Source: an uncultured virus (IMG/VR IMGVR_UViG_3300015607_004939)
Lineage: Duplodnaviria; Heunggongvirae; Uroviricota; Caudoviricetes
Virus record (IMG/VR): IMGVR_UViG_3300015607_004939
Direction: 5' to 3' (one strand)
Length of the DNA stretch: 64,000 bases
Positions 1,956 to 62,720 of this stretch are shown here, one piece after another. Within the stretch, counting starts at the first letter, position 1; each line of letters begins with the position of its first letter. Below the pieces are notes generated by a model. It was given only the letters and a program-made list of their open reading frames with translations, made no database searches and was not told the DNA's origin. The position numbers were made by a program, and so were the translations under genes.

Positions 1956-2017
1956 GACGTGTCCTTCCTCCCGTACGCCGTACGGGGGTTTCTTGGGGAG
2001 TTGAACCTTCGGGAGAG

Positions 2018-2494
2018 TTAGAGGGCGGGGATGGGGCGGCGGGAGTTTCGGTCGAGCACGACCGCGAAGGCGGCCGTCGCCTGCCCGTAGGAGAGCGGGG
2101 TCGATCGGGCGTGGTTCGGGATGCGGGAGCTCACGCAGCGCCCGCTGAAGAAGTAGGCCGCGACGCGGTTCCAGTTGCCCCGACAGCGTCCGATACCGTC
2201 GCGGACGATGACGGCCGCCGTCTCGGCTTGGTCGTGCAGGAGGTTCCCGTTGCAGCGCGCGACGTCCCGCGCGCAGACGGCTCGCATGACGGGAAGCCAG
2301 ACGCCGCACGTGCGACCCCTCGCGCGAGGGTCCAGTCCCATGCGCGATTCGCGGGTGCAGATGGAGCCGAGCAAGGCGGGGGGGACGTGATGGCGTTCGG
2401 CCGCCATGACGATCTGTTCAACCGTCGCGATCGGAACCGCGCGGAACAGGCGCGACACGATCCACAACGCGTGGAGCAGTTGGAGTGGGGTCAT
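2018..2494 (-). CDS. Lytic transglycosylase (SLT-like) protein
   Basis: AAERHHVPPALLGSICTRES (catalytic Glu motif), GNWNRVAAYF; hydrophobic N-terminus. Confidence 0.65.
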   Translation of the reverse strand: MTPLQLLHALWIVSRLFRAVPIATVEQIVMAAERHHVPPALLGSICTRESRMGLDPRARGRTCGVWLPVMRAVCARDVARCNGNLLHDQAETAAVIVRDGIGRCRGNWNRVAAYFFSGRCVSSRIPNHARSTPLSYGQATAAFAVVLDRNSRRPIPAL

Positions 2495-3898: not shown

Positions 3899-4335
3899 GT
3901 GAGCCCCGTCAAGATGAGCGGCCCCTCGCCCCGGGTGAGGTCCCGGTCCTCGCACTTCCGGTGCCCGTACTCGGTCTCCACCGAGCACTGAACGGCCGGC
4001 GCGCCGTTCGAGGGGTCCTTGCCCACGCCCTCCACCTGGAACACGGTGAGGATGCGGTCGTTCCTGCGGAAGAGCTCCCCGCAGAAGACGCACTGATGGC
4101 TCGGGCACTTGCCGGGGATGGGCATGACGATGGCCTCGGGCTTCAACCTGCTACGCGGCACCGCCGCGTGCGTGAAGGGCAGACGTGGGTTCGAGCAGCG
4201 GGCGTGGGCGGCCTCGGCGTCCTGGTCGACGTACGGCGTACCGTGCCGCACGTCGACCACGACCCAAAGCTGAACGATCTTGTCATTGGCCCCGATGGGG
4301 CCGCGACAATCCGCGCACGTGTCGAGAGGGATCAC
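3895..4335 (-). CDS. Protein with two tandem CxxC...HxxC zinc fingers
   Basis: CADC...HARC and CVFC...HRKC with similar spacer (NDKI/NDRI). Confidence 0.65.
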   Translation of the reverse strand: MIPLDTCADCRGPIGANDKIVQLWVVVDVRHGTPYVDQDAEAAHARCSNPRLPFTHAAVPRSRLKPEAIVMPIPGKCPSHQCVFCGELFRRNDRILTVFQVEGVGKDPSNGAPAVQCSVETEYGHRKCEDRDLTRGEGPLILTGLT

Positions 4336-4372: not shown

Positions 4373-7363
4373 TCAGGTGGGGTTCTTCAGGGCCTCGTCG
4401 GCCCAGAAGCGCAGCACCTTCAGGATCCCCACCTTGTCCTCGGTCTGCGGGTGCGGGATGAGCCCACGGATCTTGGGCGAGTACGCCTTCTCGCGACCCT
4501 TGGCCCGACGGTCGAGCACCGCCACGATGCCCTTGTCGGTTTCGGTGCGGATCACGCGGCCCGCGCCCTGCTTGAAGTGCATGGCCGCCTCCTGGAAGTC
4601 GAAGGCGTCCCAGGCGCGGACCTCGGCGCTCCGCTGGTCGGCGTCCGTGTTCTCCATCAGGTCCTCGACGTACTTGCGCTTGCGCGCCGTGAGGATCACG
4701 TCGCCCCGGTTGGGGAACGGGATGCGCGGGATGATGACGAGGCGCAGGTTGTTGCCCGGAATGTCGACGCCCTCCCAGTAACTCTGGAGCCCCATGAGCA
4801 CGCTCTTCTGGGACTCCCGGAACCACTTCACGGTGGACTCGACGCTGCCCGTCGACTGCATGCCGAGCCGGTAGGGGAGCGGCGCGAACTTGCGGTAGAT
4901 CCGGTTGTGCAGGGCCTCCATGTCGTCGCGCGAGGCGCACAGGACGAACGCACCCCCCTGCGACGCGGTGAGCAGCTCGTGGATCTCCTCGATCATGCGG
5001 TCGTAGTAGCCGTCGCCGCGCGTGGACGGGTCGGGCGAGGTCGAGGAGATGTAGAGCGCGCTCTGCTTGGGGTAGTTGAAGGGCGAGGGCAGGACCTTCT
5101 TGATGCGGATCTGGCGCTCGGACAGACCGAACTCGTAGGCCATGTAGCTCATGCCGTTGGGGGTGGAGAGCGTGGCGCTCGTGACGACCACCTTGCCGAT
5201 GCCGAGCAGCGCCGGGGCGATGAGGGGCCCGATCTCCAGGGGCGTGACGGTGAGGGACTTGTCGTTCCCGTCCCGCTTCTCGGAGTACTGGATCCACTCG
5301 CTCGCGTCGATGCCGACCTCCAGGACGACCTCGCAGAGCTGGCGCACCTTGCCCAGCATCGCGCCCGCCGACTGGAGCTTGGCGCGCTCGCTCGCGGCGA
5401 ACGAGCCCGCCCCGCCCTGCGGGCCGTCGTCTTCCGAGTCGAGCAGCCCCCTCGATTGCATCGCCTCGTGGACGCGCTTGCTCATCATGTAGAGCTCGGC
5501 GAAGTACTTGCGCATGTCGTCGTCCAGGCGCAGCTCGCCCCCTCGCGGCGGCAGCGCCGTGAAGATCATGTCGTACAGGCGCCCGAACTGCTCGCCCATC
5601 TCGAAGTCCGTGTCCTTCAAGATGCGGTTGATGTACTCGGGCTGCCTCGGCGAGAGGTTCAGCGAGAACGCGTCGCGGAAGAACTTCGGCGCCTTGTGGC
5701 CCTCGTCGAGGATCACGGCCTCGTAGGGCCCGAAGAGCTTGCCGCCGCCGAGGGCCAGATCGTGCGCGAGCAGCGCGTGGTTCACGATCAGGATCTGCGC
5801 CCCCTGCGCGCGGAGCTTGGCGTCGACGTAGGCGCACTCGCCCGCGTGCGGGCAGTGCTTCTTCACGCACTCGGCGACGCGGGCGTTGTGGACCCACGGG
5901 ATCGACCATCCGCCCAGGTCGCCGCCGCCGTCGAGCATCCACGCCTCGAAGTCGGCCCTCTCGTGCGGGGGGATCGAGGCGTACGCCGTACTGGACTGGT
6001 ACTCCTTCCAGCGCAGGGCGCACGAGTAGTTGCTCTTGCCCTTGAGCAGCGAGTGGCGCACGGGGCGCACGAGCGAGGCGAGGCGGGGCAGGTCGTTGGT
6101 CGCGAGCTGCTCCTGGAGCCCCTTGGTGGCCGTGGAGATCACGACCCGCTTGTTGCTCATCACGGCCGGGAGGCCGTAGGCGTAGGAGTTGTGCGTCACG
6201 GTGAAGTCGTCCAGCAGGTACCGCCCGTCTCCGTCGAGGGTGAATCCGTAGAAGTCTTCCGGCGCGGGCACCGGCACCACGGCGAATCCCGTCCGAAGGA
6301 CGCTCTTCTTCTGGAGTCGGCAGGCGGCCTGCTTTCGCGGGATGCGGCACGGGACGCGGTCCACGTCGCCCGAGATTGATACGCGGTAGTAGGTGCCTTC
6401 CGCGCCGGTCTGGCAGCTCTTCTTGCACGGCCTCACGTACGCGGCGAGGCCCACGCTGCGGGCGACGAAGGCGACGTCGTGCGCTAGGCGCGCGGACGCG
6501 GAGAGGTAGTCGAAGGTGCCCGAGTGGGTGAGCGATCCGTCCGTGTCGAGGAGGCCCGCGAGGAGGTGCATCCGCTCGTCCATGTCGGCCCGCTTGTAGC
6601 TCTCGGGAATGAACTTCGAGTGGGAGTTCACCCCCAAGAGGCCCAGGTCCGAGAGATCCGACGTCAGTCCGTTCTTACGCCACGGCGCACCGGACAGGCG
6701 GAACGTCATGCAGCCGTTCTTGATGTGTCGCAGGACCAACCGCATGCGGCGCAGACGCAAGTAGACGTGGAGTGCGTTCACCGTTTCCTGGTCGGCGCTG
6801 GTGAAGAGGACACCGCGCGCGGCGTCCCCGGACATGCAGCCGTCCCCGAGCAGTAGCCCCAGAACGTAGGGGTCGATCGGGAGCGCCCGCGCCTGTCGTG
6901 CGAAGTGAGCCGGGGCACGGAAGATCTTCGCGCGAGCCCGATCCTTCGCAGACCACCCGAGGTAGTCACGCACCGACACGTCGATCTCCTCATCCGTGTC
7001 GGTCATGACGACGGTGAGGACGTGGTCCTCGTTCACCCGCCACGAGGATCCCTTGACGGGGACGATGTCCACCATCGGGCCGTGGCCCGTGTTCGTGGAG
7101 ATCACGCGCCGGGGAGTCCCGTCGGGGCCCATCAGGAGCATGTTCACCACCACGGCCTCGACGGCGCACACCTCGCCGGAGTAGAGGAGGATGCCTTGGC
7201 CGCGCGCGTGGCACTTGCCCGTGCCGGTTCCCGCTTCGAGGAACCCGATGCCGCCGTTCTCCAAGATGTCGGCGATGTCTTCCGCCATCTCGGTCTGTGA
7301 GGGCCTGACCGAACGGATCAGGCCGAGTTGAGGGTTGGTGAGCCAGTCACGAAGAGTTGTCAC
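4373..7363 (-). CDS. dinG: DinG/YoaA-family SF2 helicase containing an intein
   Basis: RPSQ Q-motif, EAGTGTGK/S Walker A, Fe-S cysteines, ILDEGH, TSATL, SPF, YWEGVDIPG, KQGAGRVIR; RBS GGAGG before GTG 7363. Confidence 0.92.
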   Translation of the reverse strand: MTTLRDWLTNPQLGLIRSVRPSQTEMAEDIADILENGGIGFLEAGTGTGKCHARGQGILLYSGEVCAVEAVVVNMLLMGPDGTPRRVISTNTGHGPMVDIVPVKGSSWRVNEDHVLTVVMTDTDEEIDVSVRDYLGWSAKDRARAKIFRAPAHFARQARALPIDPYVLGLLLGDGCMSGDAARGVLFTSADQETVNALHVYLRLRRMRLVLRHIKNGCMTFRLSGAPWRKNGLTSDLSDLGLLGVNSHSKFIPESYKRADMDERMHLLAGLLDTDGSLTHSGTFDYLSASARLAHDVAFVARSVGLAAYVRPCKKSCQTGAEGTYYRVSISGDVDRVPCRIPRKQAACRLQKKSVLRTGFAVVPVPAPEDFYGFTLDGDGRYLLDDFTVTHNSYAYGLPAVMSNKRVVISTATKGLQEQLATNDLPRLASLVRPVRHSLLKGKSNYSCALRWKEYQSSTAYASIPPHERADFEAWMLDGGGDLGGWSIPWVHNARVAECVKKHCPHAGECAYVDAKLRAQGAQILIVNHALLAHDLALGGGKLFGPYEAVILDEGHKAPKFFRDAFSLNLSPRQPEYINRILKDTDFEMGEQFGRLYDMIFTALPPRGGELRLDDDMRKYFAELYMMSKRVHEAMQSRGLLDSEDDGPQGGAGSFAASERAKLQSAGAMLGKVRQLCEVVLEVGIDASEWIQYSEKRDGNDKSLTVTPLEIGPLIAPALLGIGKVVVTSATLSTPNGMSYMAYEFGLSERQIRIKKVLPSPFNYPKQSALYISSTSPDPSTRGDGYYDRMIEEIHELLTASQGGAFVLCASRDDMEALHNRIYRKFAPLPYRLGMQSTGSVESTVKWFRESQKSVLMGLQSYWEGVDIPGNNLRLVIIPRIPFPNRGDVILTARKRKYVEDLMENTDADQRSAEVRAWDAFDFQEAAMHFKQGAGRVIRTETDKGIVAVLDRRAKGREKAYSPKIRGLIPHPQTEDKVGILKVLRFWADEALKNPT
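6188..7213 (-). mobile_element. Intein with LAGLIDADG homing endonuclease in the DinG Walker A motif (342 aa)
   Basis: GTGK|CHARG...VTHN|S; motifs LGLLLGDG and LAGLLDTDG. Confidence 0.93.
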
Positions 7364-8736: not shown

Positions 8737-8816
8737 GAGGGCCGGTCTGCCCTACACATCCTTTTACCCGACCGGACCCCCTGTTTTGGACCCCCTCCCG
8801 GTACGCCGTACGGGGG

Positions 8817-9022: not shown

Positions 9023-12000
9023 GTGCCCCCTCCGTACTACAACTCCATGCAGGCCCAGGCCGGCTTCCTCCCCGCCCCCCAGGTGACCTTCCCGGGGCAG
9101 GTCTCGGCCATGATCGCCTCCCAGGGAGGCGTGGGGGCCTTCGGCGGGATCTTCCCCTCGCAGGTCTACCAGACGGCCGTGGGGCAGGGGCCCGTCTTCC
9201 AAGGGCCCACGGGGCTCATGGCGCAGATGGGCGGGGCCTCGCCCGCCAACCCCTACGCCGCCCCGAACCCCTACGCGGGCATCCCCGCCTACTCGGGATT
9301 CCGGGGCAGCCCGGGGCCCTTCGCCCCGTACGCGCCGAACCCGCCCCCCGCTTACGGGGGCTTCCAGGGGACGGGCTTCGTGCCGTTCGCCCCCGCCCCC
9401 GCGCCCCCGGCCTTCGATACGGCGTACGGGGGCCAGCTCGCCCAAGCCCAGGCTTCGGCCGAGCGCGCGTGGTTCATGGGTCAGGGGGAGCAAGGCGTCA
9501 TGGCCCGGATGGGCGTGAACGCCGGCTTCGGCTTGGCGGGCGCCGCCATCGGGCGACGCTTCGGCGGGCGCCTGGGCGGCGTCATCGGCGGCATCGCCGG
9601 CTTCCTCGGCTCCGAGATCGGCGGCGCAGGCCAGGGGGCGCAGAACCTCTTCGGCAACTGGGTGAGCGCCCCGAGGCTCGCCGAGTTCGGCGCCGCCGGG
9701 GCCATCGAGCACATGAGCCAGGGGTTCGTCTCGGGCGGCCCCCACATGCACGCTCGCGGGCAGGGGTTCAGCCACCACGCCTCGATGGAGGCCGCCCAGG
9801 GGCTCACCCAGATGGCGGGCTCGGCCTCGTTCAGGCGCGAGACGCGCGACCGATTCGGCCAGCAGGACGTCTTCCGCGTCACGCAGCTCGCGAGCGAGGC
9901 CGGGATGATGACGGGCGTGGGGTCTCCCGAGGGGATGGTGGCGCGCGTGCGCGACGTGATGAAGAGCCTGTCGAGCTTCATGGAGCTCGCCAAGGAGCCC
10001 GACATCGTGCGGGCCGTTCAGAGCATGCAGAACTTGCGAGCCTCGGGCCTGAACCTCCAGGAGACCCTCTCGGCGGTCTCACAGGGGCGGGCCTTTGCGC
10101 GCATGGCCGGCACGACCTTCCAGTCGCTCTCGGAGATCGGCGGCGCCATCGGCTCGGCGACGTTCCAGTCCATGGGGATGACGCAGGGGACGGGCTTCGG
10201 CGTCGGAATGGGTGCCTACGGGCAGGCGGCGTCGAGCCTCAACCGTGGCACCATCGGCACGCAGCTCGGCAGCCTCGTGGGCGGCGCGCAGGGCTTGGCC
10301 CAGCTCAACGCCATGTACGCCGGGGCGGCGCTCCAGCACCCGATGACCGTCCCAGGTCTCATGTCGACGACGGGCGGGCTGAACGCGGGCGCGCTGCGCG
10401 GCTACTTGGGCGGTCAGGGCGACCTCTTCTCGCTCACGAGCCAGGGGTCCTCGGCCCTCTCGGGCATGGCCAACCGGATGGGCGTCGGGGGACTGGGGCT
10501 CGGCGTCGCGATGCAACCGCTCCTTCAGGACACAGTGGGCCGCGCGATGCAGTCGCAGGGCATGTTCGCCGGGCGCAACATCGAGGACCGGCAGGTGATG
10601 GCTCTCGCCCGCCAGATGGGCATGAGCGGTTCGGAGGGCTACATCACCGCCGGGCAGATGATGGGCATGGACCGATCGCAGGTCATCGCCCGCGCCACGG
10701 AGCTCGGCTCCTCGTCCTACTGGCAGGGGCAACGACAGCAGCTCGGCGTCGAGCGCGCCGAGGCGCACGCCGAGGAGCGCCGCCGCCGCGAGGCCAACGC
10801 CCCGGGTGCGGGCTCGGTGCTCATGCGCGACACGGCCCTCGGGGACGCGACGGCTGGTTTGGGGGAGGCGTACCACCACCTCGCCGTGGGGGTCTCGCGC
10901 GCTTTTCGCGGACGCGAGTCGGCCGAGCAGTTCCTGGCGCCGACGACGGAGAGCGCCCGGAGGCGCCTGGACCGCATGTACCGAGACGTCGGCTCCTTCG
11001 CCCGCAACTACCGAGGCCCGGTGAACGAGGACGACGTGTTCGACCGGGTGTCGACGGACTACAAGATCTCCCGCGCGGTCGGGGCGCGCGGGCTCATGGC
11101 GGGCGCCGGGGGGCTGTTCATGAGCCTCACGCCCGAGCAGCGCGCGAACGGTCGAAGGAATCTGCGCGAGGGAGGCGAGTTCGCCAACAGCGTCTTAGCC
11201 ACGAGCTCCACTCAACAACGCGCAGCCATGGGGGAGCTCGGCAACACGTTCGGTGGCATGGAGGGCTTGGCGGCCTTCAGCCAGAACCTGAACGATCTGA
11301 CGCGTCGTGCAGCCGGAGGCGGGGCCGGGGGGCAGGTCGGAGGCATGGTCCTGAATGGCCTCTTCCGAGGGGGTGTCGGGATGTTAGGCTTCGGCGCCGT
11401 CGACCCAGGCAACATCACGGGCTCACGCGCGATGACCGAGTCGGACTTCCGCGAGGCGTACATGAACTCGATGCGCGGCCGTGGGGTCGGACAGGAAGAG
11501 CTCAATCGCCGCTGGTCGCAGGACCGCGAAACCATCGGGCAACAGGCGGCGTTCATGCGCAACCTGGAGGTGCACACGGCGGCCGAGAACGAGGCGTGGG
11601 AGACCTCCGGGTCATTCGCCTCGCGATTCGGGCGCCGGGGCGGGGTGCTGGGCCGCGTGCGCGAGCGGGAGCAGGGCGCCTACCGGGCGCTCCTCGGGGA
11701 CGTGGGCCGCGAGGGTCAGCGAGGGTTCCAGTCCGTGATGGACCGCGTCGAGGGCCTGGGTCGCGAGGGCACGAGCCGGTACGAGCAGACCCGGCGGCTC
11801 ATGGCGGTGTTCGTCCAGGCCCGCCTCGCCGCGCAGACGGGCGGCCAGGGCGGGCGCGCACGCGCCAACCGGCTCATCACCGAGGCGGCCGTGGCGGCAG
11901 GCCAGCAGGGCATGAGCGCGACGGACATCACCGACGTGGGGCACCGGGCCGAGGGGCTCACGAGCGAGTTCGTCGGCAACGAGGAGGCCGTGATGGGCGC

Positions 12001-12634: not shown

Positions 12635-12825
12635 CGCCCGCAACGCCGCGCAAGCGCGTGCCCGCATCGACCCTGCATGTCCTCACCGAGCGCCACGAGG
12701 CGCTTTGTACGGCGTACCGGTCCGACCTCGCGCCCGAGGTGGGGATGCCCTCGGTGCGCTCGACCGCGCGCGCCCTGGTGAGGGACCGGTCCGTCCTCGA
12801 CATGTACAAGTCGGTGAGGCGTTGA
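12631..12825 (+). CDS. Small hypothetical protein
   Basis: ATGA coupling, RBS GGAGGA, stop 1 nt before next ATG. Confidence 0.55.
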   Translation: MTPATPRKRVPASTLHVLTERHEALCTAYRSDLAPEVGMPSVRSTARALVRDRSVLDMYKSVRR

Positions 12826-14014: not shown

Positions 14015-15090
14015 CCGCGCGCCTCCAGTCCTTCACCCCGGAGTCCGGGTCCCTCGTCTCGCAGTACGAGCCGATCTTCGTGCTGCTCGCGCTCGACCCG
14101 GGCACGACCTCCCGATCGCTCACGATGTCCGTCAACGGATCGCCCATCCTCACGTGGACGGGCGGCTTCGTCTCGCTCGCCCCGGCCTACTTCGGGGACG
14201 TCTCGGCGAGCCCCACGCAGCTCTCGGCCACGCTCGTCCGCGACGGTGGGTGGGCCGTGGGGGTGAGCTACTCCTGGAGTACGGCGTACTCGGACTCGAA
14301 CGGGGCCTTGCCGACCGTCTCCGGGCGGCTCGCCCGCACCGCCTACACCCTGACGCGCACCCCAGCGTCCGACCAGTCGAACGTGCCCCCGAGGGCGCCC
14401 GTGTCGCTGCTCGTGGACTTCGAGGCGGGGTTGGCGCGGGCGCCAGCGCTCACGCTGAACGGGGACGAGACCGTCAACGAGGACGGCGAGCTCCTGACGC
14501 CCGCGTACTCGGGACGTTCCGGCTACGCTGGCCTGAAGGGCTGGTCGTTCGTGAACCACCGCCGATCCTTCCGTCGCGGTGCCCGGGTCCGGGTGGACGC
14601 CGGGCTCGTTGTCTCGATCGGGGGACTCATCTACAAGGCGCGCGAGTCGTGGCAGTTCGACGTGGCCGAGACGCCCGCATCGCCACGCTGGACGCCCCCG
14701 TCGCTCTCGCCGCCCGCCTACGCCCAGAGCCCCGTCGTGGCCGCGCTGCGTCAGGTGGCGGCCTCGTGCCTCCTCACGCGAGGCAGGTCCCCGGCGCTAC
14801 TCACGCTCCTGGTGGACCTCGCTCTGCACTCCGAGGTGGGTCAGCTCTTGAAGCCGTTCGTGACGGGCGCGGGGCCTCAGCTCCTGCCCGAGGACCTCCC
14901 GCCCGACGCGGCGATCGTCGATCTCGTGACCAAGGCCGACCCGTTCTGGCGTGCTGCGCTCCAGATCGCTGCGCCCGGCGAGGAGCGCGAAGCCCTTGAG
15001 CGGGCCTGGGCCTCGGAGCACCCGATCGAGCGGGCGGCTGCGCTCGCCGTGATCCTCTGCTACGCCGAGGGCCTGCGCAATGGCCATTGA
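14011..15090 (+). CDS. Hypothetical virion protein
   Basis: Coupled ORF in tail operon. Confidence 0.6.
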   Translation: MTARLQSFTPESGSLVSQYEPIFVLLALDPGTTSRSLTMSVNGSPILTWTGGFVSLAPAYFGDVSASPTQLSATLVRDGGWAVGVSYSWSTAYSDSNGALPTVSGRLARTAYTLTRTPASDQSNVPPRAPVSLLVDFEAGLARAPALTLNGDETVNEDGELLTPAYSGRSGYAGLKGWSFVNHRRSFRRGARVRVDAGLVVSIGGLIYKARESWQFDVAETPASPRWTPPSLSPPAYAQSPVVAALRQVAASCLLTRGRSPALLTLLVDLALHSEVGQLLKPFVTGAGPQLLPEDLPPDAAIVDLVTKADPFWRAALQIAAPGEEREALERAWASEHPIERAAALAVILCYAEGLRNGH

Positions 15091-43763: not shown

Positions 43764-43770
43764 GTCTACC

Positions 43771-49577: not shown

Positions 49578-50345
49578 ATGAGGGATACAACGTCGCGATA
49601 CTTCGATGAAGTCAGTCGATTGGAGCTGCCAACGCAGGCCCAGGAGCGGGCCGGGCTCCTCGACTACTGGCAACTTACGCAGGCCCACGAGCGTGAGACT
49701 GACCCCTCCAAGCGCGAGCAGATCGCCCGGCAGCGCGCCCGGAGGGGCCAGAAGATCGCGGAGGGCTACTTGCGGTTCGTCATCGGGAAGGCACGCGACC
49801 GGACACGTGACGAGGACCTCCTTCTGGACTTCATCGGAGCCGGGAACGAGGGCTTGATGATCGCGATCACCAAGTTCGACCCGGCGTACGACGTACGCTT
49901 CCTCACCTACGCCGCCCCGTGGGTGAGGGTGAAGATGGACGAGGTGGCTCACCGCCTCGGGACGGTGCACGTCTCGGTCCACCAAAGAAAGCAGTGCATC
50001 CAGCGGGGCGAGGAGCCCCCCACGGCCACCCTGACGCACGTCGATGACGTGCAACTGGTGTCCCCCTCGGACGTCGAGAGGGAGGCCGTGCCCGAGGGCC
50101 GGACGGCGCTCAAGTACCTGAAGCTGACGGGGCTCTCGCGGCGCGAGCGCGTGATCCTGGTCCTGTCGCTGGGCCTGCGGGGTGACCCGCAGGGCGACGA
50201 GGACCTCGCCCTCACGCTCTACTCGCTCGACGGGTCGATCTTCTGCGCCCCCGAGCTGCGCCGGATCCGCGAGGAGGCGCTGGGGAAAATGCGGCGCTGG
50301 GCCGGCGAACACCCCGACGAGGAGATGTTCGCCGAGCTCAGCTAG
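49578..50345 (+). CDS. Sigma-70 family factor (RpoD/RpoH-like, short)
   Basis: YFDEVSRLEL region 1.2, YLRFVI, DFIGAGNEGLMIAITKFDP..RFLTYAAPWVR region 2, LSRRER..LGL and RRIREEALGKMR region 4. Confidence 0.88.
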   Translation: MRDTTSRYFDEVSRLELPTQAQERAGLLDYWQLTQAHERETDPSKREQIARQRARRGQKIAEGYLRFVIGKARDRTRDEDLLLDFIGAGNEGLMIAITKFDPAYDVRFLTYAAPWVRVKMDEVAHRLGTVHVSVHQRKQCIQRGEEPPTATLTHVDDVQLVSPSDVEREAVPEGRTALKYLKLTGLSRRERVILVLSLGLRGDPQGDEDLALTLYSLDGSIFCAPELRRIREEALGKMRRWAGEHPDEEMFAELS

Positions 50346-50348
50346 GGG

Positions 50349-51455
50349 TCAGTCGGCTGACGAGTCCTCGTCGTCGAGGAGCGCCGCCTTCGGCAGCTCC
50401 TTGATGCCGGCGGCCTCCTCGTGGCCCCGGAGGCGGCCCTTCTCGAAGGCGATCTTCTCGGGGTCGGCGTCGCGGGCGCGCAGGTTCTTCACCCGGGTGT
50501 CGATCCAGTTGAGGACCTTGCGCTGGTTGATGACGCCGACGTGCTTCACCTCGACCTTGTCGTAGCCGTGCTGCTTGGGCACCCGCTTGACCGGCTCGCC
50601 GCCCTCGCCCGCCCCCGCCTCGGCCTTGGCCGCCTGCTTGGCCTGCCACGCCTTGACGGCCTCCTTGAGCTGGTCCTCGTCCCAGCCCTTCTCGACGGCG
50701 CGGTTGGCGATGGCCGTCTGCGCGTCGTGGTCCTTGATCGGGCGCAGGGCGCGCGCCGCCGTGACGGTGAGCAGCCCGTCGCGCACGAGCTTCAGGACCG
50801 GCTCGGCGAGGTCGAAGATGCCGAGGTACTGGCTCACCTTGCCGGGCGACCAGCCGACGCGGCTGGCGATCTGGTCCTGGAGCAGCCCCGAGTCCTTGAG
50901 GTTCTTCACTACGACGGCGCTGTCGTAGTGGGTCATGCCGGCGCGCGCCTCGTTCTCGAAGTAGGCGTCCTGCACCATCTCGGACCAGTGAGTGTAGTTC
51001 TTCACCTTGGCGTTGATGGTCGAGAACTTGTTGATGAGCGCGGCGCGCGTGCGGCGGCGGCCGAAGACCAGGACGTAGTAGTCCTCGCCCTTCTTGACGT
51101 TCACCCGCAGCTTCGGGTCGGCCGACACCGGCAGCGACGCGGTCTCGCCCACGTAGCGCATCTTGGTGACGAGCACCGGGGAGGTGATGCCGCCCTTGGT
51201 CTGCTCGACGAACTCGTCGATGCTCTGCGAGGTGCTGCGCACGTCGAAGATCACCAGGAGCTGCTGGGGCTTCACGTCGATCGGCCCCTCCTCGTCAGGC
51301 ACCGGCTCCCAGTCCTTGAAGACGGCGGCGTAGCCCGCCTTCTCCTCAGACGCGGCGGACCCGGACGCGGCGGACTTCTTGGCCCGCTTGGACGGCGTCT
51401 CCACCGTCTCGTCCTTCTTCTTGCCCTTCTTCTCGGTCGTATCTTCGGTCGTCAT
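50349..51455 (-). CDS. parB: ParB/Spo0J/KorB-family protein (ParB-N CTPase + HTH)
   Basis: GITSPVLV, LVFGRRRTRAA, ENEAR, HTH LQDQIASRVGWSPGKVSQYL, GLLTVTAARAL. Confidence 0.82.
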   Translation of the reverse strand: MTTEDTTEKKGKKKDETVETPSKRAKKSAASGSAASEEKAGYAAVFKDWEPVPDEEGPIDVKPQQLLVIFDVRSTSQSIDEFVEQTKGGITSPVLVTKMRYVGETASLPVSADPKLRVNVKKGEDYYVLVFGRRRTRAALINKFSTINAKVKNYTHWSEMVQDAYFENEARAGMTHYDSAVVVKNLKDSGLLQDQIASRVGWSPGKVSQYLGIFDLAEPVLKLVRDGLLTVTAARALRPIKDHDAQTAIANRAVEKGWDEDQLKEAVKAWQAKQAAKAEAGAGEGGEPVKRVPKQHGYDKVEVKHVGVINQRKVLNWIDTRVKNLRARDADPEKIAFEKGRLRGHEEAAGIKELPKAALLDDEDSSAD

Positions 51456-51690
51456 GATCGACTCCTTCCCGCTCCGCGCAGGACAGTTGGTTCAGCTCGC
51501 CGCGCAGAATCCGGCGGACCTCGCGCGCGAACTGGATGGGGGACACGGACTTCAGGGGCACCGCTTCGAGCGGGCCCCCGACCACGAGGTGCCGGAAAGC
51601 CTCGTAGAACTCCTTGGCCACGAGCGCCTCGCTCTGGGGCGCCACGTAGAGATCCAAAAACAACGAAACGACGATGGCCCTGAACTTCAC
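51346..51690 (-). CDS. Hypothetical protein
   Basis: GTG 51690 coupled (GTGA) to upstream stop; overlaps parB start. Confidence 0.4.
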   Translation of the reverse strand: MKFRAIVVSLFLDLYVAPQSEALVAKEFYEAFRHLVVGGPLEAVPLKSVSPIQFAREVRRILRGELNQLSCAEREGVDHDDRRYDREEGQEEGRDGGDAVQAGQEVRRVRVRRV

Positions 51691-51914
51691 CGGGTCGGCG
51701 AAGAGGTGCTGCTCCCTGGCGGCGCCTCGAAAGGCGCGGTCCCGCAGTTCGCGCAGCGAACCGATGAGCACTGAGACGTCGGCGGAAGGATCGGACCTCG
51801 ACACCTTGGGCATGTCGGCGGTTCTGCCACGCCCTCCGTACGCCGTAAAGCGGACGAAGCGGAGGCTTCTACCCGCTTGTCCTCGATATTCGTGACGACG
51901 CCGTACTTCTCCAC
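51687..51914 (-). CDS. Small zinc-ribbon protein
   Basis: MEKYGV...CPRC...CANCGTAPFE; starts 1 nt after upstream stop, RBS GGAG. Confidence 0.6.
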   Translation of the reverse strand: MEKYGVVTNIEDKRVEASASSALRRTEGVAEPPTCPRCRGPILPPTSQCSSVRCANCGTAPFEAPPGSSTSSPTR

Positions 51915-51915: not shown

Positions 51916-52446
51916 TCACTCTCCCGTCAGGTACTTGTCGAGGAAGCTCTTCTCCTCGGACGCTGCCGTGCCCGCCTCGCCCCGCCGGGCGGCCTCGGCC
52001 TCGGCGTAGCCGGGGTCGACGCGGCCGAACTCCCGCTCGACCAGACCCGTGCGGGTGCCGATCTCGCGGATGGCGACCTGACGGGGCTTCTCCAGGTCGG
52101 AGATCTCGATCGGATCGGTCAAGGGGTTCCCGCGCGCGTTCCCGCTCGACCACTTGGTGACGATGGCGCGCCCCGTGGGGCGGTCGGCGGGCGCCGGGGG
52201 CGCGGGAGGGGCCGGCGCGGGGGCCGGGGCGAAGGCCGTCGCAGACGGCGCCGGGGCGGGGGGCGCGGACGGGGCGGGAGGGGGCGGGGCAGGCCGCGCC
52301 GCCGGCCTCGGGTCGTCCACCCAGAGGTAGATCGTGCAGTTGTCGGGGACCTCGAAGTCCAGCAATACGCCGTACCCCCTCTGCTGGAGGTCCTGCTGGA
52401 TCAGGGCCTTGACGTCCTCGGGACCGTACTGAACTTGCAGCTTCAT
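51916..52446 (-). CDS. Hypothetical protein with Pro/Ala linker
   Basis: Coupled to SNF2 stop. Confidence 0.65.
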   Translation of the reverse strand: MKLQVQYGPEDVKALIQQDLQQRGYGVLLDFEVPDNCTIYLWVDDPRPAARPAPPPPAPSAPPAPAPSATAFAPAPAPAPPAPPAPADRPTGRAIVTKWSSGNARGNPLTDPIEISDLEKPRQVAIREIGTRTGLVEREFGRVDPGYAEAEAARRGEAGTAASEEKSFLDKYLTGE

Positions 52447-54446
52447 AGCAGGCTCGGCTTTGCTACGGGGCGGTTCACTGCCGCCGCGTAGGTGCAGTTC
52501 TCCCGGAAGGGGACCGTGCCGTCAAGGGCGCACGCTTCCATGCGCGGGCAGGAGGCGCATCGGATCTTCTCGGTCATCGTGAAGGCGACCCGGTCCTTGA
52601 ACCGGAGCACGCCGGCCACCATCCGGTCGAGCCCCCCGAGCCCCTCGGCGGTCAGGAGCCGGTAGCAGGTCATCTTGCGCTTCTGGCCGGGCCGGTTGTT
52701 CCTCTCGATGGCCTGCTGGTAGTCGAGCGGTGCCCACGGCAGCGAGTAGAACACCGAGTAGTTGGCGGCGGGCAGGTTGATGCCGATCCCGGCGCTCACC
52801 ATCCCGACGAGCACGCGCGTCTTGGGGTCCTCTTGCACCGCGAGCTCGATCCGCTCGACGTCCTTGGTCGTGTCCCCGTCCAGGCGCTCGACCTTGACCC
52901 CGAGCTCGGCGCACACGCCCATCATGTCGTCCAGCTCGTCGTCGAAGACCCCCCAGCACAGGACCTTGTTGGTGTCGTCCTCCTCCAGGATCTGTTCGAG
53001 GAGGTCCTTGAACACCTCCCGCTTGGGGTTCTCGAAGTCGCGCAGGACCTTGCGCGGGGGCTTCTGCTGCACGACGAGGCACTTCTTGGTGTAGGGCTTG
53101 ATCCGCTCCTCCACGCACACCTCCATGCGCGGGCAGGCGTCGCAGATGGTCCGGTCGGGCGCCTCGATGAGGAAGCCGGAGATCACCTGGAGGAGCTTGT
53201 TCACCAGGGCGGCCCCGTGGGGCAGGTTGAAGAGGACCTGCGCCGGGGGCGGCGCGAGGCCCGGCTCGGGGTTGTCGTCGAAGTGCGCGGCGTACGCCTC
53301 CAGCGCGGGGTCGAGCGTAGCCTGCATGGTTGATACGAGCTCGTTGTAGCGGTGCTTCTGCCGGGTCCCGAGCTCGAAGGGCACGTCCACCACGGTCATG
53401 GCCGGCAGGTCCAGGCAGTCCTTCTTCTTCATCCGCAGCGCAACCGAGTCGACGATCGCGTTCATCTCGTTCAGGTTCTTGTAGCCCGTGCGGATCACGG
53501 CGTTGTACGGGGAGCGCGTGACGTACTTGTCGACGAACTTCTCGTAGTCCATCGGGACGAGGGCGGGCGAGAGGAAGTAGAGCTGTCCGTAGAGCTTCTC
53601 GGGCGTGTCGCCCGGCGTGCCGGTTAGCGCGATGCGGCGCGGCGCGGGCACCGACAGGGCCACCACGGCCTGCGTCTGTTCGCTCTTCCAGTTGCCCAGG
53701 CGGTGCGACTCGTCGGCCACGATCACGTCGTAGCCGAGCTCCAGGAGGCGGCTCCGCTCGGGGGCGAAGATCGCCATCTTGCCGAACTGCGGGTGCTCGA
53801 TCTCGGTGTTCGCCATGAGGCGCGCGCGGGCGTAGCTCACCCCCACGACCTGGGCCGACTTGGCGGCCTCCCAGGACTCCTCGGTCCCGTCGAAGTAGAC
53901 GCCCTTCCACTCCCCGCGCGACACGCGCCCCGTCTCGCGCGCCCAGCCGGGGAGCACGACCGGGGGCCCGACGACGAGGGCCTTCTTGAAGGGGGCCTCG
54001 CGGGCGATCACGCGGAGGGCGTCGAGCGTCGTGCGCGTCTTGCCCGTGCCCATGTCCCACAGGAGGAACGTCCGGGCCCAGTGCCGGATGCGCGATACGC
54101 CGTACCGCTGGTACTTGAAAGGCTGGAAGGTGTCGGGGAAGAACTCGCCCGGCACGTCCGCGAGGCACGGCTCCCCCCTCGCCCAGGCGGCCTCCTCCGA
54201 TTCCCAGGCGCGGTCCTTAGCCTCGATATCGGCCGCAAGCGCCAGGGCGTCCGGCGTCCAGCGCGCGCCCACGGCCAGCTTGCGCAGGTCCCGCATTGCC
54301 CACAGGCCGAATGGGTAGTACCCGGGGAAGATCCAGGTGCCGCTGACGTACTGGGCGCCCCACGCGCGGGCGAGCGGGGACTTCTCGGGGCCGGGCGACG
54401 CGAACGCGCGTGCCGTATTGTTGAGCGTGAACGACCTGATCTCCAT
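52443..54446 (-). CDS. SNF2-family helicase/ATPase
   Basis: YQ..G, DMGTGKT, VADESH, LTGTP, GIGINL, QAIERNNRPGQ; RBS GGAGGAG. Confidence 0.92.
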   Translation of the reverse strand: MEIRSFTLNNTARAFASPGPEKSPLARAWGAQYVSGTWIFPGYYPFGLWAMRDLRKLAVGARWTPDALALAADIEAKDRAWESEEAAWARGEPCLADVPGEFFPDTFQPFKYQRYGVSRIRHWARTFLLWDMGTGKTRTTLDALRVIAREAPFKKALVVGPPVVLPGWARETGRVSRGEWKGVYFDGTEESWEAAKSAQVVGVSYARARLMANTEIEHPQFGKMAIFAPERSRLLELGYDVIVADESHRLGNWKSEQTQAVVALSVPAPRRIALTGTPGDTPEKLYGQLYFLSPALVPMDYEKFVDKYVTRSPYNAVIRTGYKNLNEMNAIVDSVALRMKKKDCLDLPAMTVVDVPFELGTRQKHRYNELVSTMQATLDPALEAYAAHFDDNPEPGLAPPPAQVLFNLPHGAALVNKLLQVISGFLIEAPDRTICDACPRMEVCVEERIKPYTKKCLVVQQKPPRKVLRDFENPKREVFKDLLEQILEEDDTNKVLCWGVFDDELDDMMGVCAELGVKVERLDGDTTKDVERIELAVQEDPKTRVLVGMVSAGIGINLPAANYSVFYSLPWAPLDYQQAIERNNRPGQKRKMTCYRLLTAEGLGGLDRMVAGVLRFKDRVAFTMTEKIRCASCPRMEACALDGTVPFRENCTYAAAVNRPVAKPSLL

Positions 54447-56544: not shown

Positions 56545-56648
56545 TGGCTGGGCCCCGGTCACCGGTTGGTGTCGTCGTCAGAGGATGACGACGATGACGA
56601 ACTTGAGCACGCTGGTCAGTACCATGCGCACCTCCTTCCGCATCCTTG

Positions 56649-56654
56649 TACCCT
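56649..56654 (+). promoter_or_regulatory. -10 element TACCCT upstream of RNAP gene
   Basis: 14 nt before ATG 56669. Confidence 0.45.
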
Positions 56655-56668: not shown

Positions 56669-59600
56669 ATGAGCGAGCCGACGCCCATCCTCACCGACGC
56701 CTCCCACATCCGCGAGCGGATTCGGGAGAAAGCGATCCAGACCGCGTACGCCGTATTCCCCCTGGAGGCCCAGGGGCGGAAGCTGGAGATCGAGGATGTC
56801 CACGTCCGCAACGAGCGTTACAGCCCGGTGCGAGAGGCGCGCGCGCTCATGACCGACGGGACGCTGTCCGAGGCGATGCGCGGGACGCTCGTTCTGCGCG
56901 ACAAGGACGGCACGGTGCTCGACCGGGCCAAGAACTTCACCATCGCGCACCTGCCGTACTTCACCGACCGCCACACGGTGATCGCGAACGGCAACGAGTA
57001 CCAGATCGCGAACCAGCTCCGCAGGAAGCCCGGGGTCTACACGGCGCGCGCGGACAACGGGGAGCTCCGGGCCATCTTCAACCTGGGCCGTGGGAAGAAC
57101 TTCGACCTCGGGTTCGAGCCCAACAAGGGCACCTTCCACCTCGCCTACGGCACGAGCAACATCCCGCTTTACCCAGTGCTGCGGGCGCTGGGCGTCTCAC
57201 ACCAGACGATCGCCGACCAGTGGGGAAAGGGTGTCGCGGACGCGAACCACACCGCCCACGGCCATCAGACCGAGAAGGCCGTGGCGAGTCTCTACGCCAA
57301 GGTCGAGCACCCGGTGGTGATGAACCCGAACCTGCCGCACGCCGAGAAGGTGACGGCGCTCCAGAGGAAGTACGACCAATCGACGCTCGACCCGCGCGTG
57401 ACCGAGGCGACGCTCGGGGTGGCCTGGGATAAGGTGACGCCGCAGGCGCTCATCGGTGCGGCCAAGAAGGTGCTGGCCGTCCACAACGACAAGGCGCAGG
57501 TCGACGACACCGACTCGCTCACCTTCAAGACTTTCCACTCGATCGACGACTTCATCGCCGAGCGCATGCGCCTGACGGCCCGCGCGTGGGTCCCCGCCGC
57601 CAAGCGCGCCTTGAACGGCAAGACCAACATCCGCGAAGCCCTGCGCCCGGCGCCCTTTTCGGACGGGCTGCGCAAGTGGGTCACGACCTCGTCGCTCTCG
57701 GCCGTGCCAACGGGCATCAACCCGCTGGAGATGCTCGACCACGCCGTCAAGGTGACCTCGCTCGGCGAGGGCGGGATCCCCAGCGATCGCGCGATCCCGC
57801 TGGACGCGCGCATGATCCACAACACACACATCGGCGCGCTCGACCCGATTCGCACGCCGGAGTCGAACCATTCCGGGGTCGACATCCGGGCGACCCTGGC
57901 CGCGCACCGCGACAAGGAGGGCAACCTCTACACCGTCGTCAAGAACGTCAAGACCGGCAAGGAGGAGTTCCTCCGGTCGGGCGAGCTGCGCAAGCACGTC
58001 CTGGCCTTCCCCGGCGAGGACCTGCGCGGGCACGTGGACGCCTTCGTCGGCGGCAAGGTCGAGCGGGTGCCCGGTGATAAGGTCACCCACCAGCTCCTGC
58101 ACACCGCCCACACCTACTCGCCCGCGACGACGCTGATCCCCATGATCCACTCGATCCAAGGCAACCGCGCCATCATGGGGTCCAAGATGGGCACCCAGGC
58201 GCTGCCGCTGCTGGAGCGCGAGGCGCCGTACGTCCAGGTCCGCTCGCACCTGCCGGGCGGAGAGAGCTTCGAGACCGTCTACGGCCACATGTTCGTGCCG
58301 CGCGCGACGGTGAGCGGGACGGTGAAGAAGATCGAGGACGGCTGGATCTACATCAAGCCGGACAAGGAGCACGAGAAGAAGTCCGAAGTTCGCCGTGAGG
58401 ATGACGACGTCGACGCGGACGGGGTGAAGGTCGCCGCCGAGGACGACGGGCTCGTCAAGGTGCCCTACCAGACGCTCTTCCCGTTCCCCTCCAAGACCTA
58501 CCTGCACCACGAGCTCTCGGTGAAGCCGGGCGACAAGGTGCAGGAGGGTCAGCGCCTGGGCGAGTCGAACTACACCCGCAAAGGCACCCTCGCCCTCGGC
58601 AAGAATCTGCTCGTGGCCTACATGCCGTACTACGGCCTGAACTCCAACGACGCCGTCGTGATCTCGGAGGGTTGCGCGAAGAAGCTGACCTCTGAGCACA
58701 TGTACCGCGAGGTCTACGCGCTGAACCCGCAGATCGAGCTCTCGCGCGAGAAGCACCGGATGTACTTCGGCAACAAGTACACCCGCGAGCAGTACGGCGT
58801 ACTCGACGAGACGGGCGTCGTGAAGAAGGGCTCGCGAGTCCACCCGAAGGACCTCCTGGTCGCCGGGCTCACCAAGACCCAGGTGCTGGGCACGGACGCG
58901 CTCCTCGGGCGCATCTCCAAGAGCCTCGCCAAGCCCTACCAGGAGGTGACGCTCTCCTGGACCCACGGCACCCCGGGCGAGGTCGTGGACGTGGTGCGCA
59001 CGGCCACGCAGATCGCCATCCTCGTGCGCACCCACGAGCAGATGCAGGTCGGCGACAAGCTCTGCTACGACGAGCAGACGGAGGTTCTAACCGACCACGG
59101 GTGGAAGCACTTCGACTTGCTGGACCCCTTGACGGATCGTGTGGCGAGCCTTGAAGGCGGGGCCCTCCGTTACGTGGAACCCGAAGCGTACCATCGGTAC
59201 GCGCGCGGGGGTCGCATGTACGCCGTCTCGTCGCAACAGCTCGACCTGTTCGTAACGGACCACCACGGGATGTACGTTCAGCGGCGCGGCGAGACCGAGT
59301 TCGCCTTGCGGCCGGCGGAAGACATCGCCGGCCAGCGGGTTCGATACAAGAAGGACGCGGACTGGCAGGGCGAGACGCCCGACCACGTGGTCTTCCCTTC
59401 GCTCACCGTCGCCGCAGGGCAGGGGGGGCGTGGGTCTCGCGTGCTGACCCCGCTGCGCATGCGAACGGACGCCTACGCCATGCTGCTGGGCGCGTACCTG
59501 TCGGAGGGGAACCTCGTCGATCAACCCGAGAGCGGCAGCTACGGGATCGACATCACGCAGATCAAGGAGCCCAACCGGGCGCGACTGCTCACGGAGCTCC

Positions 59601-62245: not shown

Positions 62246-62720
62246 CTTCCCTGCCGACATCGACGGAATGCTGAAGGCCGCCGAGGACCCGGAGCCGGAG
62301 CCCGACCCCGTGCCGGGCCTCGTGCGCAAGCTCCTCTCCGTCAAGTACGCCGTACTGCTGGCGTACGTGAGCTACGGCGACCAGCTCCGGGGCGCGAACC
62401 GCGACGGGCTCTACGAGCACTTCCAGGAGCACGTGAAGGACGAGCGCCGCTCGATCTACGAGTTGAACCGTCACCTCGCCTCGCGGGGGGAGGTGCACGT
62501 GCCGCACAACGTCACCATCCCCGAGGTCGAGCTCGGGGGCCCGGTGCCGCTCCTCGGCGTGCTCCTCCAGTTCGAGGAGGCCGCCCTCGAAGCGTGGCGC
62601 GAGCTCTTCCGCGCGATCCCGCCGAACAAGAACGTGGGGCTCTCGGGCTTCGCGCAGAACGGCGCGCAAGCCCAGCTCGCCCACGTCGAGGACCTGCGTC
62701 GCTGGGGGGCCCGGTCGTGA
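62238..62720 (+). CDS. Ferritin/bacterioferritin-like four-helix protein (degenerate)
   Basis: LYEHFQEHVKDE..SIYEL, QFEEAALEAWREL, QLAHVEDL. Confidence 0.55.
   Translation: MDDFPADIDGMLKAAEDPEPEPDPVPGLVRKLLSVKYAVLLAYVSYGDQLRGANRDGLYEHFQEHVKDERRSIYELNRHLASRGEVHVPHNVTIPEVELGGPVPLLGVLLQFEEAALEAWRELFRAIPPNKNVGLSGFAQNGAQAQLAHVEDLRRWGARS

Follow-up and report, generated by a model that had tools for sequence, protein, structure and literature searches.

To our knowledge, the roles of the cytidine triphosphate (CTP)-dependent clamps of the ParB family lie in the segregation of chromosomes and plasmids, in nucleoid occlusion, and in the silencing of plasmid genes, and in every case the binding sites number from a few to a dozen. 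Plasmid RK2 has 12 operators of the OB type, each an odd palindrome with a central C or G. The KorB protein of RK2 is a ParB-family CTP clamp that loads at these dispersed palindromic operators and is reported to slide to targets, including promoters, up to 1.5 kb away, and KorA locks it in place (PMC11790492, in part). Among phages, the Cluster O mycobacteriophages carry a 17-bp dyad repeat, TGTTCGGNNNCCGAACA, with 34 copies in the approximately 70-kb genome of the non-temperate Corndog and no tie to promoters; its role is unassigned, a dimeric binder has been predicted, and the genomes encode a protein with a ParB-like domain (PMC4351075, in part). Here, we describe a 64,000-nt stretch of DNA from an uncultured Caudoviricetes virus (IMG/VR IMGVR_UViG_3300015607_004939; hereafter the window), which is dotted with the palindrome RTACGNCGTAY and encodes a ParB-like protein that may be its reader. 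Full-text literature searches retrieved no description of an evenly spaced, genome-wide lattice of ParB-type sites in a phage, and 12 of the 23 phage-related passages of a survey of the ParB-CTPase fold that includes phages (PMC12704722) describe no such lattice either.

A preliminary description of the window had counted 19 perfect GTACGNCGTAC copies, all of which were recovered at the same coordinates, compared with a mean of 0.04 in 100 dinucleotide-preserving shuffles (maximum 1; 0 of 100 reached 19). The TACGNCGTA core occurs 28 times (shuffle mean 0.10, shuffle maximum 2), the nine additional copies starting, as reported before, at 9417, 27088, 37594, 46659, 46759, 51838, 52365, 54095, and 56746; eight of these nine are R...Y variants, with G replaced by A on the left and/or C by T on the right, and the exception, at 51838, ends in A. 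C or G occupies the center of 24 of the 28 copies, and the GC content of the window is 0.66–0.71 throughout. The same stretch was found in contigs of four sequencing runs of one study labelled as a wastewater metagenome, from which it may originate, no RNA run being listed among those that contain it, and it matches a 99,906-bp virus record, designated G001 (estimated to be 58% complete), with 99.97–99.995% identity. G001 contains 44 core copies, 29 of them perfect, and its places with 0, 1, and 2 mismatches number 44, 29, and 343, respectively, versus 0.35, 17.7, and 276 in shuffles; the exact core is set sharply apart from the near-miss forms. Megablast of window positions 20000–30000 against cultured phages returned zero matches and the best terminase match among them is 31% identical, so that no cultured proxy for this phage is available. 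Ten related virus records were collected by using as queries the terminase, the ParB-like protein, and the SNF2 helicase. In all eight relatives counted, whose GC contents range from 0.49 to 0.69, the motif is the top palindrome or heavily over-represented: there are 19 core copies in G002 (35 kb), 42 in G003 (74 kb), 101 in the complete G004 (172.9 kb), 24 in G005 (35 kb), and 90 in the complete G006 (186.8 kb, with terminal repeats), compared with 0–2 copies of a reversed control word in these five records. Likewise, TACGNCGTA is the top palindrome in G160 (GC 0.635; 31 observed versus 2.3 expected), G163 (GC 0.49; 24 versus 3.4), and G161 (GC 0.68; 15 versus 0.9).

Under an order-2 Markov model, the motif is the most over-represented 9- and 10-mer in G001 and G006, and the top over-represented words of G004 are the same motif extended outward to AATACGSCGTATT. 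Outside the core, the positions at ±5 are Y/R, with C commoner than T, and those at ±6 and ±7 are weakly biased. Overlapping tandem copies with a 7-bp step form a minor class, with examples in the window (33347/33354, spanning 33347-33364) and in G006 (104,996-105,018 and 112,950-112,965). These tandem copies share GTAC, which allows the motif to be viewed as a series of GTAC-GNC-GTAC units. The intergenic region bounded by a gene end at 8433 and a gene start at 9023 is partly N in the window and unscorable for the motif there, and its counterpart in G001 holds zero core copies between its two flanking sites. Regarding other short words, CTAG, TTAA, and AATT are nearly absent from G001, G004, and G006 (in G001, CTAG 8 versus 151, TTAA 1 versus 23, and AATT 0 versus 42 expected from dinucleotides), and GTAC, TACG, and CGTA show no avoidance outside the motif in the same three records.

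The sites are evenly spaced. The longest gap in the window, put at about 3.8 kb before, is 3,837 bp (42822 to 46659), and in six records the spacing is far more even than under random placement, for which 20,000 simulations served as the null. The coefficient of variation (CV) of the gaps is 0.44 in G001, 0.54 in G004, 0.53 in G006, 0.58 in G003, 0.46 in G002, and 0.58 in G005, compared with 0.93–0.99 for random placement (0.97 for G001), with P(CV) ≤0.0029 in all six. The largest gaps of G001, G004, and G006 measure 3,874, 5,014, and 5,994 bp versus simulated means of 9,649, 8,788, and 10,405 bp. For the maximum gap, each of the four largest records gave P ≤0.0008, and the two records of 35 kb gave 0.014 and 0.020. 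When the gaps of G001, G004, and G006 were pooled and compared with an exponential distribution, 153 lay between 0.5 and 1.5 times the mean (89 expected), only 6 exceeded twice the mean (31 expected), and 27 fell between 0.1 and 0.5 times the mean (69 expected). There is about one site per 2 kb in G001, and every base of this record lies within about 1.9 kb of a copy. The largest gap of G006 (154,358-160,352; 5,994 bp) overlaps approximately 4 kb without called genes.

Most of the sites lie within coding sequence. A codon-bias gene finder called 46 genes covering 96% of the window; 24 of the 28 copies are inside called genes, and a 25th is inside a small conserved open reading frame (ORF) dropped by the gene caller. 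As the preliminary description had stated, copies fall in all three frames (14, 8, and 2 of the 24 in frames 2, 1, and 0) and on plus-strand (13) as well as minus-strand (11) genes, and their relative positions within genes range from 0.01 to 0.87. The rare-codon use noted there was also found: of the 2,437 Val codons in G001, 59 are GTA, and motif copies contain 24 of these 59; TTA accounts for 3 of 2,763 Leu codons in the called genes of G001. No copy is present in either intein (about 6223-7201 and 59066-60131), again in agreement with that description, an absence that is statistically non-significant (0 seen versus about 0.9 expected over 2.07 kb). When synonymous codons were permuted within each gene, preserving proteins and codon usage (200 shuffles per genome), the counts were not reproduced: coding copies number 37 versus 1.74 in G001 (standard deviation 1.21, maximum 5), 78 versus 4.08 in G004, and 65 versus 5.00 in G006. 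Among the places able to spell RTACGNCGTAY synonymously, 36 of 51 in G001, 70 of 85 in G004, and 64 of 83 in G006 carry the motif, so that occupancy is near saturation. Random draws from these encodable positions were considered as a null for spacing and rejected, because 71–82% of the positions are the sites themselves and offer no independent null; the set was used for occupancy only. The peptide contexts Y-[AGVD]-V, T-[AP]-Y, and [VIL]-R-R-[TI] themselves look shaped by the DNA word. Selection acts on the DNA sequence of the sites, in opposition to the preferred codons and amino acids.

The sites are also inherited within the phage lineage. Orthologous mapping of G001 sites showed the motif to be retained at the same codons for 10 of 13 sites in G002 (69% mean protein identity), 13 of 33 in G006 (53%), and 12 of 29 in G004 (46%); copies persist at orthologous codons despite protein identities of 46–53%, at which synonymous positions are saturated. 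At several kept sites, the central base is flipped and the amino acid changed (G to A, A to P) with the motif intact, and other sites were relocated between relatives with density and evenness preserved. In the more distant G160, G161, and G163, there is one copy per 3.8–5.2 kb, the flanks are not R/Y, and the evenness is unconvincing (CV 0.61–0.80, P 0.04–0.15). Because these distant relatives are sparser and not convincingly even, the word is old in the family and the dense, even lattice derived in one subclade.

When considering candidates for a protein that reads the word, a 368-aa ParB-like product of the window stands out. It comprises a disordered Lys/Glu/Thr-rich N-terminal tail, an N domain, a ParB-type helix-turn-helix (HTH), and two C-terminal helices; it matches Pfam HTH_ParB (PF17762; E 6.1e-14, above the curated cut-off) and is assigned to 'ParB-like partition protein' in PHROGs. 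Its residues 118-290 match Thermus thermophilus Spo0J, Bacillus subtilis Noc, and other ParBs in PDB sequences (E 1e-9 to 1e-4). The segment FGRRRTRAA, a putative GxxRxxA nucleotide-binding motif, aligns with AGERRYRAA of Spo0J, i.e., the ParB GERRxRA box. Among 13 close relatives, G132, R133, and R135 do not vary, and over a wider set of 29 sequences the same holds for G132 and R135. The segment FENEAR (ENxxR nucleotide-pocket motif) aligns with VENLQR, N168 and R171 being invariant in the 29 sequences and E167 in the 13. An AF2 model built from the 29 sequences (pLDDT 86) replaced a four-sequence model (pLDDT 63), and its top PDB fold matches are ParB-CDP, ParB-CTPgS, Noc, and KorB; the complex of the Noc DNA-binding domain with DNA, 6y93, matches with TM 0.82 and a root-mean-square deviation of 2.5. 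As a candidate dimerization region, the C terminus shows two confident helices (308-327 and 332-348) and the conserved pattern G-x-L-E-G...G-L-K-x-L-P-K, and it has no Pfam match. Judged by sequence, then, the phage encodes a ParB-family protein whose nucleotide-binding motifs and HTH are intact.

The ParB-like gene is single-copy in G001, G002, G004, and G006, including both complete genomes, and it is also found in G160, G162, G163, and G164. G003 and G161 have no ParB-like gene within their available parts, the contig of G161 ending just past the adjacent helicase gene; the gene is present in every genome whose sequenced part spans its locus. A profile search of 1.84 billion representatives yielded 17 proteins at E ≤1e-30 and 1,533 at E ≤1e-10, the nearest of which share the architecture of tail, N domain, HTH, and C-terminal motif. 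In tblastn searches of cultured phages, ParB gave 13 weak partial matches, mostly to unannotated fragments, and the record 'Aphanizomenon phage Yong-DA' was dropped as plasmid-like, with Rep, ParA, and ParB. A ParA ATPase (PF01656) was found in none of five records, both complete genomes included, compared with 14 of 14 control genomes, and it was absent from the Pfam scans of phage proteins. Inspection of the ParB-like translation likewise revealed no (L|F|I)G[K|R]G(L|F|I), the motif for ParA binding according to PMC12704722 (in part). With no ParA in the five records and no ParA-binding motif, the protein is an orphan rather than part of a partition cassette.

The surroundings of this gene provide a link between protein and site. 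The approximately 460 bp upstream of the ParB gene were considered as a noncoding operator region, which was rejected because they hold two conserved small ORFs, one encoding a zinc-ribbon protein and the other a protein of about 120 aa. Both precede the ParB gene in the six genomes examined (the window, G002, G004, G006, G160, and G163), and neither has a significant Pfam match. The open frame of the second overlaps both neighbors and extends about 100 nt into the ParB gene; conservation of both frames across this overlap suggests overlapping genes or a frameshift fusion. The two proteins could be partners of ParB. The site within the zinc-ribbon ORF reads TTACGSCGTAY and encodes L-R-R-T/M, with Leu specified by TTA. 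When 38 coding sites of G001 were mapped onto six relatives by tblastn, this site, at 51838, was the only one found in every one of the five relatives that cover its place, down to 29–30% ParB identity. Two of these five, G160 and G163, retain just 2 of 21 and 3 of 22 G001 sites, respectively; no other site is kept in more than three relatives. If exactly one site is universal, the chance of its being the one at the head of this operon is roughly 1 in 38. A cognate site within or next to the operon is common for genes of the ParB family. Autoregulation by P1 ParB is mentioned in PMC11790492 (in part). The universal site at the operon head lends real but modest support to a gene–site link.

The DNA-level parts of a chromosome-wide protein-docking lattice are well supported. 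The preliminary description had proposed sites for a dimeric protein that coats or marks the chromosome, a view that is partly supported, being in line with the spacing, the conservation, the spread through the lineage, and the ParB-like gene. Two outcomes named there as refuting it did not arise: codon-preserving shuffles fell short of the counts, and none of the bacterial genomes sampled had a comparable density. That a protein binds the sites, that the binder is ParB, that ParB slides, and what its coat is for are steps that we infer. RTACG-S-CGTAY would serve as a docking site on double-stranded DNA for a two-fold symmetric protein, and its most likely reader is the partner-less ParB/Noc/KorB-type protein of the phage. 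By analogy with ParB, Noc, and KorB, a dimer would recognize the palindrome, bind CTP, close as a clamp, and slide off, and clamps could reach the whole chromosome because every base of G001 has a site within about 1.9 kb. We assign a probability of about 0.45 to this reading, in which the ParB clamp of the phage loads at the copies and can thereby spread over the entire chromosome. Such a coat might mark or compact phage DNA, shield it, or act as a mobile cofactor for phage transcription. A broader version is doubtful: large lytic-type phages would use a partner-less ParB-CTP clamp as a whole-chromosome system, with about 90–100 in-gene loading sites at a spacing matched to the sliding range, a coat that marks self, and an even lattice derived from an ancestral state with a site at the ParB operon. 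The ParB coat would then form a protective or compacting phage chromatin, or a mobile cofactor licensing the phage RNA polymerase and sigma-like factors, the latter being likened to the sliding-clamp activator gp45 of T4.

Several observations weigh against ParB as the reader. Of 88 G001 proteins, 56 are common to the four larger relatives G004, G006, G160, and G163, and most of them lack a recognizable domain or Pfam family, so that another reader is possible. The sites of ParB, Noc, and KorB are 13–16 bp long and the 11-bp core is shorter, its 6-bp half-site spacing being tighter than in typical ParB sites. The core remains constant, shared by every relative examined, while ParB falls to 29–30% identity and its putative recognition helix changes (SPGKVSQYLGIF versus SEGNVSQVLAIG). 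Moreover, ParB alone does not entail an even lattice, since the distant relatives that carry it are sparser and unconvincing in evenness, and the support from the operon site is only modest because protein constraint on L-R-R-T adds to its conservation. These same data would fit a different dimeric phage protein, such as the zinc-ribbon protein, in whose ORF the deepest-conserved site sits, the protein of about 120 aa, or an unannotated core protein, with ParB unrelated or acting as a partner. We consider this unlikely, as ParB is the only conserved protein with a recognizable dimeric fold for sequence-specific binding of double-stranded DNA, except for the sigma-like factors, which do not read palindromes, and members of its family are known readers of dispersed, near-invariant palindromes (KorB; PMC11790492, in part).

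It is distinctly improbable that the word is the target of a modifying or nicking enzyme of an unrecognized family, which could provide a self-mark against a phage or host nuclease with ParB perhaps as an activator. The all-or-none specificity recalls restriction-modification enzymes, the motif offers four T:A and two CpG positions per strand, most phage genes are unannotated, and phage ParB homologues can activate thymine dioxygenases, although those ParBs lack a DNA-binding domain, whereas the protein described here has an HTH (PMC13229309, in part). However, N6/N4 (PF01555) and C5 (PF00145) methyltransferases and TET/JBP enzymes were found in none of the five records, both complete genomes included, and there was no DNA methyltransferase among 236 Pfam-scanned proteins, Dam-type and other families not having been searched genome-wide. 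A single methyltransferase was seen, an RNA-repair enzyme of the Hen1 type that is joined to a PNKP ligase. Furthermore, a self-mark alone needs no even spacing, and one-mismatch relics show no CpG-to-TpG decay.

Signals of replication or recombination, such as lagging-strand priming, topoisomerase, or Chi-like sites, are more improbable still. The spacing of about 2 kb resembles the length of bacterial Okazaki fragments, a palindrome would make such signals orientation-free, and the phage encodes its own polymerase, helicases, RecB-like nuclease, and RuvC; nevertheless, the known signals for primase, Chi, and gyrase lack symmetry or are short, and a palindrome of 10 specified bases is not known among them.

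Regarding bacterial chromosomes, a comparable density was found in none of the 398 genomes searched, the phage's own host not being identified. The maximum number of 11-mers per genome was 26, 30, and 7 in three phylum-wide samples (151, 121, and 121 genomes, respectively), and four unpublished genomes (G165, G182, G246, and G284; part of the sample with maximum 30) had 2–3 copies each. In five genomes chosen by their nearest ribonucleotide reductase, the core occurred 14–81 times per 3–5.5 Mb versus 12–87 for the reversed control. Inference of the host from ribonucleotide reductase failed, the best bacterial relatives being at most 53% identical and belonging to several phyla. The composition of a single host is hard to square with the word because it follows the phage family across GC contents of 0.49–0.69. 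A functionless by-product, i.e., a host-derived palindrome like HIP1, whose 8 bp can reach one copy per gene (PMC5861425, in part), or biased repair, is scarcely credible, given the lack of enrichment in these genomes, a lineage-bound word at GC contents implying different hosts, and a mutational bias that explains neither even spacing nor positional conservation at 46–53% identity.

If the copies are indeed loading sites for ParB, this would be the first virus to tile its whole genome with ParB-type sites, paid for in rare codons and changed amino acids. It would also mean that distances of kilobases between DNA sites can be under selection, provide a natural measure of how far a clamp must travel, and point to a new way in which large phages without a nucleus organize, protect, or transcribe their DNA. 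The motif is in addition a simple sequence marker for this phage family in metagenomes. The positions of all sites and of the ParB operon are collected in Table 1.

Table 1. Motif copies and ParB operon features in window coordinates; "kept" denotes retention of the motif at the orthologous place in the relatives listed.
Position	Strand	Sequence or feature	Context
1973..1983	.	GTACGCCGTAC	Intergenic; 18 nt before the start codon of 654-1955(-); C-run and G-run flanks
4231..4241	.	GTACGGCGTAC	Gene 3895-4260(-); codons G-T-P-Y-V; kept in 0 of 2 covered relatives
5981..5991	.	GTACGCCGTAC	Helicase gene 4373-7288(-), just outside its intein
8801..8811	.	GTACGCCGTAC	Intergenic, within repeated 235-bp element 8737-8972
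9417..9427	.	ATACGGCGTAC	Gene 9023-12634(+); kept at the same codons in G006, G004, G160
12707..12717	.	GTACGGCGTAC	Gene 12631-12825(+)
14279..14289	.	GTACGGCGTAC	Gene 14011-15090(+)
16972..16982	.	GTACGCCGTAC	Gene 15080-19195(+), M23 peptidase domain
19457..19467	.	GTACGGCGTAC	Sigma-like gene 19192-19896(+); kept in G006, G004, G163
22434..22444	.	GTACGCCGTAC	Gene 21499-23514(+)
24925..24935	.	GTACGTCGTAC	Gene 23516-27010(+)
27088..27098	.	GTACGGCGTAT	Intergenic; gene ends at 27010, next starts at 27103
30695..30705	.	GTACGCCGTAC	Class II ribonucleotide reductase gene 30345-33152(-); kept in G004
33347..33357	.	GTACGGCGTAC	RuvC-like gene 33160-33681(-); 7-bp-step overlap with the 33354 copy
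33354..33364	.	GTACGACGTAC	Overlap partner of the 33347 copy; kept in G002, G006, G004
36307..36317	.	GTACGGCGTAC	Gene 36035-37054(+); kept in G002, G006
37594..37604	.	ATACGGCGTAT	Gene 37054-37725(+); codons I-R-R-I; kept in G002
41045..41055	.	GTACGACGTAC	DNA polymerase A gene 40344-43763(-); kept in G002
42822..42832	.	GTACGGCGTAC	DNA polymerase A gene 40344-43763(-); kept in G002, G004, G163
46659..46669	.	ATACGCCGTAC	Gene 43771-47241(-); kept in G004
46759..46769	.	GTACGCCGTAT	Gene 43771-47241(-); kept in G002
49886..49896	.	GTACGACGTAC	Sigma-like gene 49620-50345(+), tail-to-tail with the ParB-like gene; kept in G002
50349..51455	-	Candidate reader, orphan ParB/Noc/KorB-family protein, 368 aa	HTH_ParB, motifs, fold
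51346..51813	-	Open frame holding the conserved ORF of about 120 aa	Flanked by the zinc-ribbon ORF and the ParB gene, overlapping both; exact ends uncertain
51690..51914	-	Zinc-ribbon ORF, 74 aa, CPxC...CxxCGTAPFE	First gene of the ParB operon; conserved small ORF
51838..51848	.	GTACGCCGTAA (TTACGGCGTAC on minus strand)	Zinc-ribbon ORF opening the ParB operon; codes L-R-R-T, rare TTA
52365..52375	.	ATACGCCGTAC	Gene 51916-52446(-); kept in G002, G006
54095..54105	.	ATACGCCGTAC	SNF2 helicase gene 52443-54446(-)
56746..56756	.	GTACGCCGTAT	Fused RNA polymerase beta/beta' gene 56669-62245(+)
58792..58802	.	GTACGGCGTAC	RNA polymerase gene, just before the intein; kept in G002, G006, G004
62345..62355	.	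GTACGCCGTAC	Ferritin-like gene 62238-62720(+); kept in G006, G004

According to Pfam, the window encodes a large terminase, DNA polymerase A, class II ribonucleotide reductase, RuvC, a PD-(D/E)XK nuclease, SNF2 and DinG-type helicases, a fused RNA polymerase beta/beta', two sigma-like factors, two inteins, and one protein with a ParB-type HTH. The fused RNA polymerase is of the bacterial multisubunit type in one 1,858-aa gene with a LAGLIDADG intein at aa 800-1154, and it is accompanied by two or three sigma-like factors (window 56669-62245 and 62932-63999+). In relatives, inteins of this gene occupy other insertion points, and G160 and G163 have none at the point used in the window. A 235-bp intergenic element is present at window 8737-8972 and at G001 271-505, just left of the window (92% identity), each copy holding one motif copy flanked by a C-run and a G-run. 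The word CACATCCTTTYACCC occurs at window 8755-8769, 8986-9000, and 56639-56653 (three with at most two mismatches versus 0.08 expected); two of these copies are about 20–30 nt upstream of gene starts, and the word may be a promoter or leader word. A general link between CACATCCTTTYACCC and the motif sites was rejected, although four of its five G001 copies are within 200 bp of a site, because G002 and G004 lack the word and its G006 copies lie at a distance from sites. The sole tRNA found in G006 (L029:7089-7163) has the anticodon CUA, an amber suppressor labelled tRNA-Pyl by ARAGORN, and no tRNA was found in the 99.9 kb of G001; the CUA tRNA may point to TAG read-through in part of the family. 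The fusion of Hen1-type methyltransferase and PNKP ligase in G006 (L028:8415-11345) is a 976-aa protein of an RNA-repair system, near which genes for Thg1, ADP-ribosylglycohydrolase, ThyX, dCMP deaminase, and dNMP kinase are located.

When compared to known systems, the palindrome shares with HIP1 of cyanobacteria its hyper-abundance inside genes as a short palindrome (PMC5861425, in part). HIP1, however, belongs to the genome of a cell, and the word described here is evenly spaced and confined to a phage lineage in everything searched. Among the analogues proposed in the preliminary description, KorB operators proved the nearest, whereas stoperators do not fit: those of the Cluster A mycobacteriophages are asymmetric sites oriented with transcription (PMC4351075, in part), while here a palindrome lies on genes of both strands. 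The phage thymine dioxygenases offer another parallel, in that a phage ParB homologue without ParA acts on phage DNA, an action that is predicted in our case; those ParBs have no DNA-binding domain and lie beside a 5mYOX gene (PMC13229309, in part). Here, in contrast, an HTH is present, and TET/JBP was not found in the five records. Likewise, the Cluster O repeats resemble the sites of the window in being many near-invariant palindromes across a non-temperate phage at about one per 2 kb. The motifs differ, and our recount of the 34 Corndog repeats (CV 1.06, P 0.76) indicated that they are not evenly spaced, unlike the lattice described here. In Corndog, 14 of the 34 repeats are between reading frames and 10 more are near gene 5' ends (PMC4351075, in part); they are thus mostly intergenic or 5'-proximal, compared with 25 of 28 intragenic copies in the window. 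Additionally, Corndog gp90 has the ParB N domain only, without HTH_ParB, and Corndog encodes DNA methyltransferases.

Spo0J, Noc, and ParB are the best sequence (E 1e-9) and fold (Foldseek E 5e-10) matches of the phage protein, and Noc binds many sites scattered over the chromosome without ParA. The phage system differs from ParB-parS and Noc with its binding sites in the motif, a far higher density, the even spacing, and the K/E/T-rich tail. In ParABS systems, parS sites are few and clustered at one centromere, whereas here 28 in 64 kb and 44 in 99.9 kb are spread evenly, and the ParA partner and ParA-binding motif were not found in the phage. KorB-OB of the IncP plasmid RK2 comes closest, with identical palindromic sites dispersed over the replicon (PMC11790492 and PMC13768133, both in part), a protein of the ParB family in both systems that combines an HTH with an N domain of the CTP type, and a sliding distance of 1.5 kb (PMC11790492, in part) on the same scale as the half-spacing here. 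The phage protein is not a KorB orthologue, since it has no KorB Pfam domain (PF08535) at E ≤0.01, only HTH_ParB being reported, and its sequence matches KorB chains with E 0.41; the fold is similar (8qa9, target-normalised TM 0.65). The phage also has no ParA/IncC in the five records and no recognizable KorA. With about 90–100 sites per genome, it carries about ten times as many as RK2, 25 of the 28 window sites are within genes, and the sites are evenly spaced; the phage encodes its own RNA polymerase and appears to be of the lytic type.

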